26,423 bases of DNA from Promethearchaeota archaeon (GTDB lineage: Archaea > Asgardarchaeota > Thorarchaeia > Thorarchaeales > Thorarchaeaceae): contig WJMJ01000124.1 of the NCBI GenBank assembly GCA_014728035.1, positions 1 to 26,423 on the forward strand. Direction: 5' to 3'. How positions within the stretch are numbered: position 1 is the stretch's first letter; each line of letters starts with the position of its first letter. The notes beneath the pieces were generated by a model. That model was given only the letters and a program-made list of their open reading frames with translations. It searched no databases and was not told the DNA's origin. Of this stretch, positions 1 through 141 are shown one piece after another. Made by a program: the position numbers and the translations under genes.

Positions 1-5
1 AGGAG

Positions 6-13
6 TTTATATG
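6..13 (+). promoter_or_regulatory. Archaeal TATA box-like element (TTTATATG) in repeat copy 1
   Basis: Matches TTTAWA consensus and lies about 30 nt upstream of the first predicted stem. Confidence 0.5.
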
Positions 14-35
14 GAGTGATCTGGAATAGAGATTT

Positions 36-141
36 GGTCTAAAGACACAGGATCCCTGACCAGGACCGAGCCAGTTCCAGTACCGTTTCTGGACGGACAA
101 AGCTCGGGTGTCTAAGTTTGTCCAACTAAAAATGAACGGTA
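36..141 (+). ncRNA. Putative structured RNA, copy 1 (unknown family)
   Basis: Complementary pairs 43-48/108-113, 66-71/102-107, 76-80/89-93, 95-101/117-123 and 81-88/134-141. The last pairing ends exactly at the repeat boundary. The 5' end is estimated from TATA spacing. Confidence 0.45.

Follow-up and report, generated by a model that had tools for sequence, protein, structure and literature searches.

Introduction

Stand-alone omega RNAs that work in trans were described by Altae-Tran et al. (2021), whose findings are summarized in PMC10691335. According to that summary, they are mobilized copies of a guide-RNA scaffold that have neither an effector nor a transposase gene and are present in the genome beside effector loci, and the scaffold of each ends at the transposon boundary, where it is followed by a variable guide. 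The repeat that we describe here appears to have the same organization. It differs from the stand-alone omega RNAs of that summary in having ends of the IS607 (serine-recombinase) type, an Asgard host and its own TATA promoter at the 5' end of the scaffold, in that the 5' half of its scaffold is unlike the TnpB-linked version, and in that its function in trans is predicted only.

Protein-less derivatives of IS200/IS605 elements, known as PATEs, often encode omega RNAs as well (Meers et al., 10.1101/2023.03.14.532601). Their gene-less state, transposon ends and many copies are shared with our repeat, as would be the provision of an RNA for TnpB in trans and mobilization by TnpA in trans. PATEs differ in having subterminal palindromes and in undergoing single-strand transfer by a Y1 transposase beside a TA-rich TAM, whereas the repeat has no conserved palindromic ends and carries GG-containing termini that match the ends of serine-recombinase elements. 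The repeat was not assigned to the PATEs because it has neither subterminal palindromes at both ends nor a fixed TA-rich target 5' of its left end. Classical MITEs are likewise short, gene-less, present in multiple copies and prone to break assemblies, but this class was also rejected, since the unit lacks terminal inverted repeats and a target-site duplication.

Elements of the IS607 family have no inverted repeats and cause no target duplication, carry GG at their termini and in their target, and have subterminal direct repeats 20 to 60 bp from the left terminus (PMC6188088). In CboIStron, TnpA targets TGGG, the TAM of TnpB is also TGGG and the scaffold ends in UCGG, so that the occupied site escapes cleavage (PMC10690162). 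ISFba1 has a RAGATH-18 reRNA with a 20-nt guide (PMC11061315). The repeat agrees with these IS607 TnpA(S)/TnpB elements (CboIStron, PMC10690162; IS1535/IS607, PMC6188088; ISFba1) in its termini, the GG of its target and its subterminal repeats and, in gene-bearing copies, in a guide RNA that is encoded at the right end and overlaps the 3' end of tnpB. It differs from them in that the unit is without both genes and in that its RNA matches neither RAGATH-18 nor any Rfam family, and the linked TnpB, at about 710 to 745 amino acids, is almost twice as long as the bacterial IS607 TnpBs of about 390 amino acids (PMC11061315). The omega RNA of ISDra2 has a 116-nt scaffold, a 16-nt guide and a pseudoknot that uses nucleotides -6 to -2 beside the guide (PMC10097598). 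The RNA described here likewise has a scaffold of about 110 nt with several stems, and the bases directly before its predicted guide may form a pseudoknot, but the two have no detectable sequence similarity, and the partner of the pseudoknot lies near the 5' end in ISDra2 and would be a hairpin loop here.

The stretch of DNA analyzed (the window) is the entire contig C95, positions 1 to 26423, of a 173-contig genome bin of a member of the Thorarchaeaceae (GCA_014728035.1). The comparisons reported below, all of them made at the level of sequence, lead us to propose that a repeat in this window is probably a non-autonomous, gene-less mini-element of the IS607 type that carries a TnpB omega-RNA-like scaffold.

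Results

A 190-nt repeat is dispersed through the genome

The initial annotation of the window had noted that positions 1 to 141 recur at positions 23248 to 23388 with 2 mismatches. This repeat is real (99% identity), but the unit does not run from 1 to 141, since position 1 is the start of the contig and not an element boundary. When the internal copy was compared by BLAST together with 600-nt flanks, its homology to other copies extended 50 nt further to the left, giving a true unit of about 190 nt at positions 23198 to 23387 of the plus strand. This complete unit (copy 2) shows full-length homology to other copies and has unrelated flanks on both sides. Copy 1, at positions 1 to 140 of the plus strand, is cut by the contig start and comprises unit positions 51 to 190, with the TATA box, the RNA scaffold and the right end. 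What had been taken as a duplication of two copies proved to be a family of about 35 in the genome (40 BLAST matches, 37 RNA-model matches), with members on more than 30 contigs. About 17 of these are young copies with 97 to 100% identity and about 15 are older copies with 70 to 88% identity, and the flanks of the copies are unrelated to each other on both sides and in either orientation.

The repeat accounts for many of the contig breaks in this genome bin. Approximately 13 contigs open with the last 138 to 141 nt of the unit and approximately 15 close with its first 138 to 146 nt, a pattern that, we infer, fits an assembler whose longest k-mer was near 141 and which met a repeat longer than k. 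Together, the near-identity of the young copies and these breaks indicate that the copies have probably transposed recently and are not fixed host genes.

Nearly all copies start with GGGT and end with CGGT, and the base that follows varies. Homology had been thought to end at base 141, on the last base of the last helix. The conserved boundary is instead base 140 (...AACGGT), with A, G, C or T at base 141 elsewhere, and the observation that the last helix ends at the element boundary was upheld. Neither end of the unit (GGGTAGCAATCAGC... and ...AAAAATGAACGGT) is an inverted copy of the other, and only an internal motif of 7 to 8 nt is inverted. No direct repeat of the kind left by a target-site duplication was found in the paired flanks of at least 12 full copies.

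The ends of the unit match those of IS607-type elements in the same genome

The unit has four components, namely a left end of some 55 nt in which TTGGACA occurs twice, a TATA promoter, a 106-nt RNA and a right end that lies inside the RNA and stops at ...ACGGT. In copy 2, GGGT at the left junction (23198 to 23201, plus strand) is a candidate TAM that is common to, or derived from, the target site, and the right end has CGGT. The two direct TTGGACA repeats of the left end lie at 23222 to 23228 and 23232 to 23238 of the plus strand (unit positions 25 to 31 and 35 to 41), and an inverted TTGGACA copy, TTGTCCAA, lies in the right end at 23365 to 23372.

Both ends of the unit have counterparts in a gene-bearing element on contig C25. 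Unit positions 1 to 55 align with the left end of this element, directly upstream of a MerR-HTH ORF, including GGGT and the two TTGGACA motifs, and unit positions 126 to 190 (about 65 nt) align with its right end, where they match the 3' end of its TnpB gene and the DNA downstream of that gene. The gene (G000 C25:210075-212216, equivalent to L011:2076-4217; minus strand) encodes 713 aa and contains a Cas12f1-like TNB domain (Pfam PF07282, E 1.4e-15), and no Pfam match was obtained for its first 640 or so residues. Its C-terminus reads ...YTSQDCHACG...CPHCG...HADVNAARNI, in which HADVNAARNI is the retained RuvC-III motif. When the protein was compared to PDB sequences, only this C-terminal zinc-ribbon/RuvC-III region matched Cas12f/TnpB-type chains (E of about 3e-3). 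The preceding ORF encodes a 123-aa MerR-HTH protein without a recombinase domain, and the TnpA of the C25 copy looks truncated from its sequence. On contig C16, a homologous left end precedes an intact TnpA of 204 aa (C16:29418-30029), which has a Resolvase domain and whose N-terminus is the same HTH sequence as that of the C25 MerR-HTH ORF. The combination of a serine-recombinase TnpA and a TnpB is the IS607 arrangement.

The IS607-like element on C16 (C16:29370-31891, L077) also contains a 562-aa ORF on the opposite strand (30029-31714) that has no Pfam match, as well as a TnpB fragment that covers residues 258 to 325 only and runs off the contig end. Other TnpB-like ORFs were seen in the genome on contigs C128, C123 and C151.

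The TTGGACA repeats are kept in the left ends of both the C25 and C16 elements and also in other genera, and by analogy they may be where the serine-recombinase TnpA binds. Apart from the GGGT core, the left flank varies, and other genera do not retain a small hairpin of the left end, GTAGC/GCTAC. Taken together, the unit shows each of the IS607 features listed in the Introduction, with the GG of the unoccupied target coming from one reconstruction.

Insertion sites

That reconstruction comes from a copy at C121:79510-79700, which splits a terminator to give GACCCC-TTCG-G/GGGT...unit...ACGGT/TTCTATTCTTTTTTT, where slashes mark the junctions. A hairpin scan found an intact paralogous terminator at C121(-)89119, GACCCC-TACG-GGGGTC-TCTCTCTTTTTT, from which it follows that the unoccupied C121 site contained a single GGGGT and gained 186 nt on insertion, this empty site being one reconstruction only and made from a paralogue. 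A second copy, at C4:10725, was also seen inside a hairpin, of the form CCCC-loop-G/GGGTT. Terminator hairpins of the CCCC-tetraloop-GGGGT type, hit in the descending arm at C121:79700 and C4:10725, may be preferred targets because they contain GGGGT, and an insertion that parts the stem from the T-tract could lead to read-through of the upstream gene. A search with 61 flanks found no empty-site alleles in the assembly, and when orthologous empty sites were sought in the sister species (G001) and in three further genomes, the flanks proved not to be collinear. The positions of copies are not conserved between species of the genus.

Positions 138 to 170 of the window (plus strand) hold a remnant of the left end of another element (repeat family D4), and this remnant is in register with the GGT that ends copy 1 (GGTATGTAACTGCTGGTGAAAACTTGGA versus GGGTAGCAATCAGCTACTGAAAACTTGGA). 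The remnant matches the left end at 17 of 21 positions, with a perfect 12-mer, and has the terminal GGT in common with copy 1, which suggests an insertion beside a resident copy with possible reuse of the same GGGT site.

Each unit carries a TATA-like box and a covarying, pseudoknotted RNA

The view that the repeat has its own promoter was supported, in that a conserved archaeal TATA-like box lies between the ends of the unit, 21 nt before the 106-nt RNA. In copy 1 this box, TTTATATG, is at positions 6 to 13 of the plus strand (unit positions 56 to 63), ends 21 nt before the first base of the RNA and is nearly invariant in alignment A2, which combines 33 full units, all distinct, from this genome and from three relatives; in copy 2 the box is at 23253 to 23260 of the plus strand. 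The motif YTTAWATR (at least 7 of 8 positions) was found in 61 of 73 distinct upstream regions, compared to approximately 22% of shuffles, and in 56 of these 61 the octamer ends 21 to 28 nt before position 1 of the RNA model, across genera in which the intervening sequence differs. This is the usual archaeal spacing between a TATA box and the transcription start, and transcription is thus predicted to start at the first paired base. A scan for bacterial-type promoters and terminators returned nothing, and none was expected in an archaeon.

The omega-RNA-like scaffold of 106 nt occupies positions 35 to 140 of the plus strand in copy 1 and 23282 to 23387 of the plus strand in copy 2, and these score 128.6 and 122.1 bits, respectively, with covariance model R1. 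All five of the complementary segment pairs reported initially were found in place. On the plus strand of copy 1, these are helices H1 (43-48/108-113), H2 (66-71/102-107) and H3 (76-80/89-93) and pseudoknots H4 (95-101/117-123) and H5 (82-88/134-140, in which the loop ACCGTTT pairs with the tail GAACGGT). To these we add a 5' helix missing from the earlier list, H7 (35-39/58-62, plus strand). The expectation that pairing would be preserved in homologues held, with clear covariation for four of the five listed helices and weak covariation for the fifth. The earlier-listed structure was paired in 89% of the cells of alignment A2, compared to 29 to 46% when the partners were slid, and the corresponding values for alignment A6, which contains 77 distinct stand-alone sequences, were 89.8% and 33 to 44%. 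Model R1 covers unit positions 85 to 190 and includes nested helices only; H4, H5 and H7 were left out of it, and the alignment was therefore not fitted to them.

In alignment A6, all six pairs of H2 showed compensatory changes. Pair 19:107 of H1 was CG in 50 sequences, UA in 15 and GC in 5; pair 57:90 of H3 was CG in 55 and UA in 19; pair 1:33 of H7 was UA in 36, AU in 14 and GC in 3; and pair 94:121 of pseudoknot H4 was GC in 64, UA in 6 and CG in 2, all of these being counts that ignore phylogeny and in which many covarying cells were inherited within subfamilies and are not independent events. Pseudoknot H5 was paired in 95% of cells and was mostly invariant. Only its inner pair varies: stand-alone copies have CG, UG or UA there, and four TnpB-linked copies have GC. 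The conservation of H5 could reflect a constraint at the DNA level, since its 3' strand is also at the recombination site. A short hairpin, H6 (53-55/63-65), crosses H7, and both have compensatory changes, with the counts leaning towards H6 because it was in model R1; the two could be alternative folds or could coexist. The initial annotation had also stated that both mismatches between copies 1 and 2 avoid the helices. One of them, at window position 53 (T, versus G at 23300 in copy 2), sits on the closing pair of H6, which was then unlisted. The G breaks this U-A pair, and copy 2 is the sole sequence of the 33 without it.

Folding had been expected to be better than that of shuffled controls and was not, with z values of -0.75 for positions 1 to 141 and +0.14 for the 106-nt RNA, and, folded as single sequences, neither the two strands nor the RNA part did better than shuffles. 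Minimum free energy folding is at chance level, and the case for structure rests on covariation and not on thermodynamics. The RNA family has no Rfam match: at the gathering score there was none in the whole window, and at E values up to 10, a search of positions 23150 to 23450 returned only a chance lncRNA fragment and no RAGATH-18 RNA, ribozyme or group I intron. A tRNA/tmRNA scan of the window found none. The earlier suggestion of a ribozyme-like RNA is not supported, given that no Rfam ribozyme was matched, and a group I intron was rejected because the unit is too small and has no Rfam match. Of the earlier reading as a discrete structured RNA or single-stranded DNA element, both the discrete unit and the structured RNA, now a covarying and pseudoknotted one, survive, and of the roles then proposed, RNP scaffold and mobile-element end fit best.

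These data bear directly on the strongest alternative, which is that the unit is a plain non-autonomous transposon relic in which the pairings are DNA signals for a serine recombinase (binding repeats and a crossover core) and there is no functional RNA. H4 and H5 coincide in part with DNA signals, namely the TTGGACA and TTGTCCAA motifs and the GGGT and CGGT ends, and the folding energy is at chance level, all of which a relic would explain. It would not explain the compensatory changes in H1, H2, H3 and H7, which are outside any end motif, or those in H4, where the right-end motif varies with its RNA partner, as GTACA/TGTAC in L021 illustrates, rather than with the left-end repeats. Nor would a relic be expected to keep a TATA box at a fixed distance from the first paired base or to share its RNA with the 3' termini of TnpB genes, the place at which omega RNAs are encoded. 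We consider a relic of this kind improbable.

Distribution of the RNA and of TnpB among related genomes

Model R1 matched 42 of the 61 genomes of the same family, with more than 650 full-length matches and up to 55 per genome, and none of the 103 genomes that represent 25 further families in the phylum. Among the loci examined, all 45 matches of at least 57 bits were without a TnpB within 200 nt upstream, and 10 of the 13 matches of 53 bits or less overlapped the 3' end of homologues of the C25 TnpB, which was confirmed by Pfam at L024, L030 and L040. In C25 itself, the TnpB stop codon falls inside the scaffold. C25-type TnpB homologues (710 to 745 aa, at E 1e-20) were detected in 33 of the 61 family genomes. 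The RNA was found in all 33 of these, 9 further genomes had the RNA alone and 19 had neither, a co-occurrence that is partly by construction because the genomes are related and the TnpB elements carry the RNA themselves. In genomes that are RNA positive and TnpB negative, the nuclease could be divergent, copies could be missing from the assembly or the RNAs could be orphans. In the C25 TnpB gene, nothing in the sequence clearly corresponds to the 5' half of the stand-alone scaffold, and the compatibility of this scaffold with that TnpB is therefore assumed.

One genome of the same family, G011 (98% complete), has 41 RNA matches and no C25-type TnpB at E 1e-20. At one locus in this genome (L028, G011:C81), an upstream IS110-family transposase (DEDD_Tnp_IS110 plus Transposase_20) adjoins an RNA copy and is probably an unrelated neighboring insertion. 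Within the literature collection searched, no paper combined Thorarchaeota and TnpB.

The presence of tens of self-promoted copies per genome, the nine genomes with the RNA and no detected C25-type TnpB, and the other TnpB-like ORFs on C128, C123 and C151 are features that might be seen in a domesticated guide-RNA gene family with a host function, such as RNA-guided repression or regulation of adjacent DNA by a TnpB-derived (TldR-like) protein, instead of homing. Set against domestication are the 97 to 100% identity of the young, assembly-breaking copies, which points to recent transposition, the lack of conserved positions between species of the genus, and the RuvC-III motif (...HADVNAARNI) that the C-terminus of TnpB keeps. 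We find this explanation quite improbable.

Surroundings of copy 2

Copy 2 lies at the extreme 3' end of an ORF at 22837-23217, whose stop codon is now inside the left end of the element, and upstream of an ORF at 23355-25124. An intron or IStron was rejected at this position because removal of 190 nt, or of the 186 nt inserted, does not fuse these two ORFs and the upstream frame stops 4 codons on. In the sister species, the gene at 21989-22729 has a DNA counterpart but the stretch that follows it, from approximately position 22733, has none, and positions 22733 to 25800 may be a separate inserted segment. Within it, ORF 22837-23217 has weak GINS-like matches, ORF 23355-25124 belongs to no family and has a Cys-rich N-terminus, and ORF 25128-25799 has a NUMOD3 motif. 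NUMOD3 is typical of the DNA-binding modules of homing endonucleases.

The arrangement at copy 2 is also what favors a third explanation, that the unit is a cis-regulatory leader or portable promoter cassette in which the ATG at 132-134 (copy 1) or 23379-23381 (copy 2) is a start codon. The unit has a TATA box and ends in ...AAAAATGAACGGT, and the ATG of copy 2 is in frame with ORF 23355-25124. However, the ATG of copy 1 meets a stop after 4 codons, other copies are inside terminator hairpins, and the unrelated flanks, in either orientation, speak against the earlier proposal that the repeat is a leader of a downstream gene. A leader is thus very unlikely. Least credible of all is that the two copies, as direct repeats 23,247 bp apart with one at a contig edge, are the attL and attR of a 23-kb integrated element, or that copy 1 is an assembly artefact, since this is refuted by the copy number (about 35 occurrences on more than 30 contigs), the DNA between them carries ordinary genes of the chromosome, among them one for a histone deacetylase, and only the left edge of copy 1 is a contig-end artefact.

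Discussion

If the repeat is a mini-element of the IS607 type, as we propose, then its RNA may act in homing in trans, a function that we favor somewhat over its absence, by analogy with described systems. What the sequences show is the homology of both ends, the copy number, the covariation and the association of this RNA with TnpB genes, and the mechanism that we propose goes beyond them. The element would be moved by a serine-recombinase TnpA encoded elsewhere in the genome (on C16), which would exchange strands within a short GG(G)T core and leave no target duplication. Transcription would begin from the internal promoter at the first base of the scaffold, and the transcript would cross the right boundary, so that its 3' tail would copy the flanking DNA and act as the guide. 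In the sequences, a constant scaffold runs to ...ACGGT and all copies diverge from the next base. The predicted guide of copy 1 is the variable flank 3' of ...ACGGT, at positions 141 to 160 of the plus strand, with a length of 16 to 20 nt assumed by analogy, and that of copy 2, predicted from its position, is at 23388 to 23407 of the plus strand, where it overlaps the start region of ORF 23355-25124. A TnpB of the 713-aa C25 type would load the RNA in trans and cut the empty site (GGGT plus flank) left by excision, and this cutting would force the element to be copied back. The occupied site, with CGGT in place of GGGT, would escape cutting, and we infer that GGGT and CGGT follow the same logic as TGGG and TCGG in CboIStron.

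An element of this kind belongs to a type that is already known from stand-alone omega RNAs and from protein-less PATEs with omega RNAs. What is new is the RNA family, the IS607-type ends, the dedicated archaeal promoter, the Asgard host lineage and the unusually large partner TnpB. The mini-element described here would extend stand-alone omega RNAs to serine-recombinase (IS607-type) elements of Asgard archaea, with each copy having its own promoter. The compact candidate scaffold of about 106 nt, the predicted TAM GGGT and the large uncharacterized archaeal TnpB make up a candidate RNA-guided pair that is directly testable. The repeat is also worth masking or modeling in annotation, lest it be misread as att sites, leaders or novel ribozymes.

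Tens of copies of the RNA are present per genome, versus few genes for the TnpB of about 710 to 745 aa. A further and speculative step, which we think unlikely although worth stating, is that the TnpB guide-RNA genes of one Thorarchaeota family have now become independent, self-promoted mini-transposons, which may be parasites of TnpB systems or may have been recruited by the host for RNA-guided regulation of flanking genes. If true, this would place an intermediate between the homing of transposons and a distributed guide repertoire like that of CRISPR in the archaeal lineage that is closest to eukaryotes.
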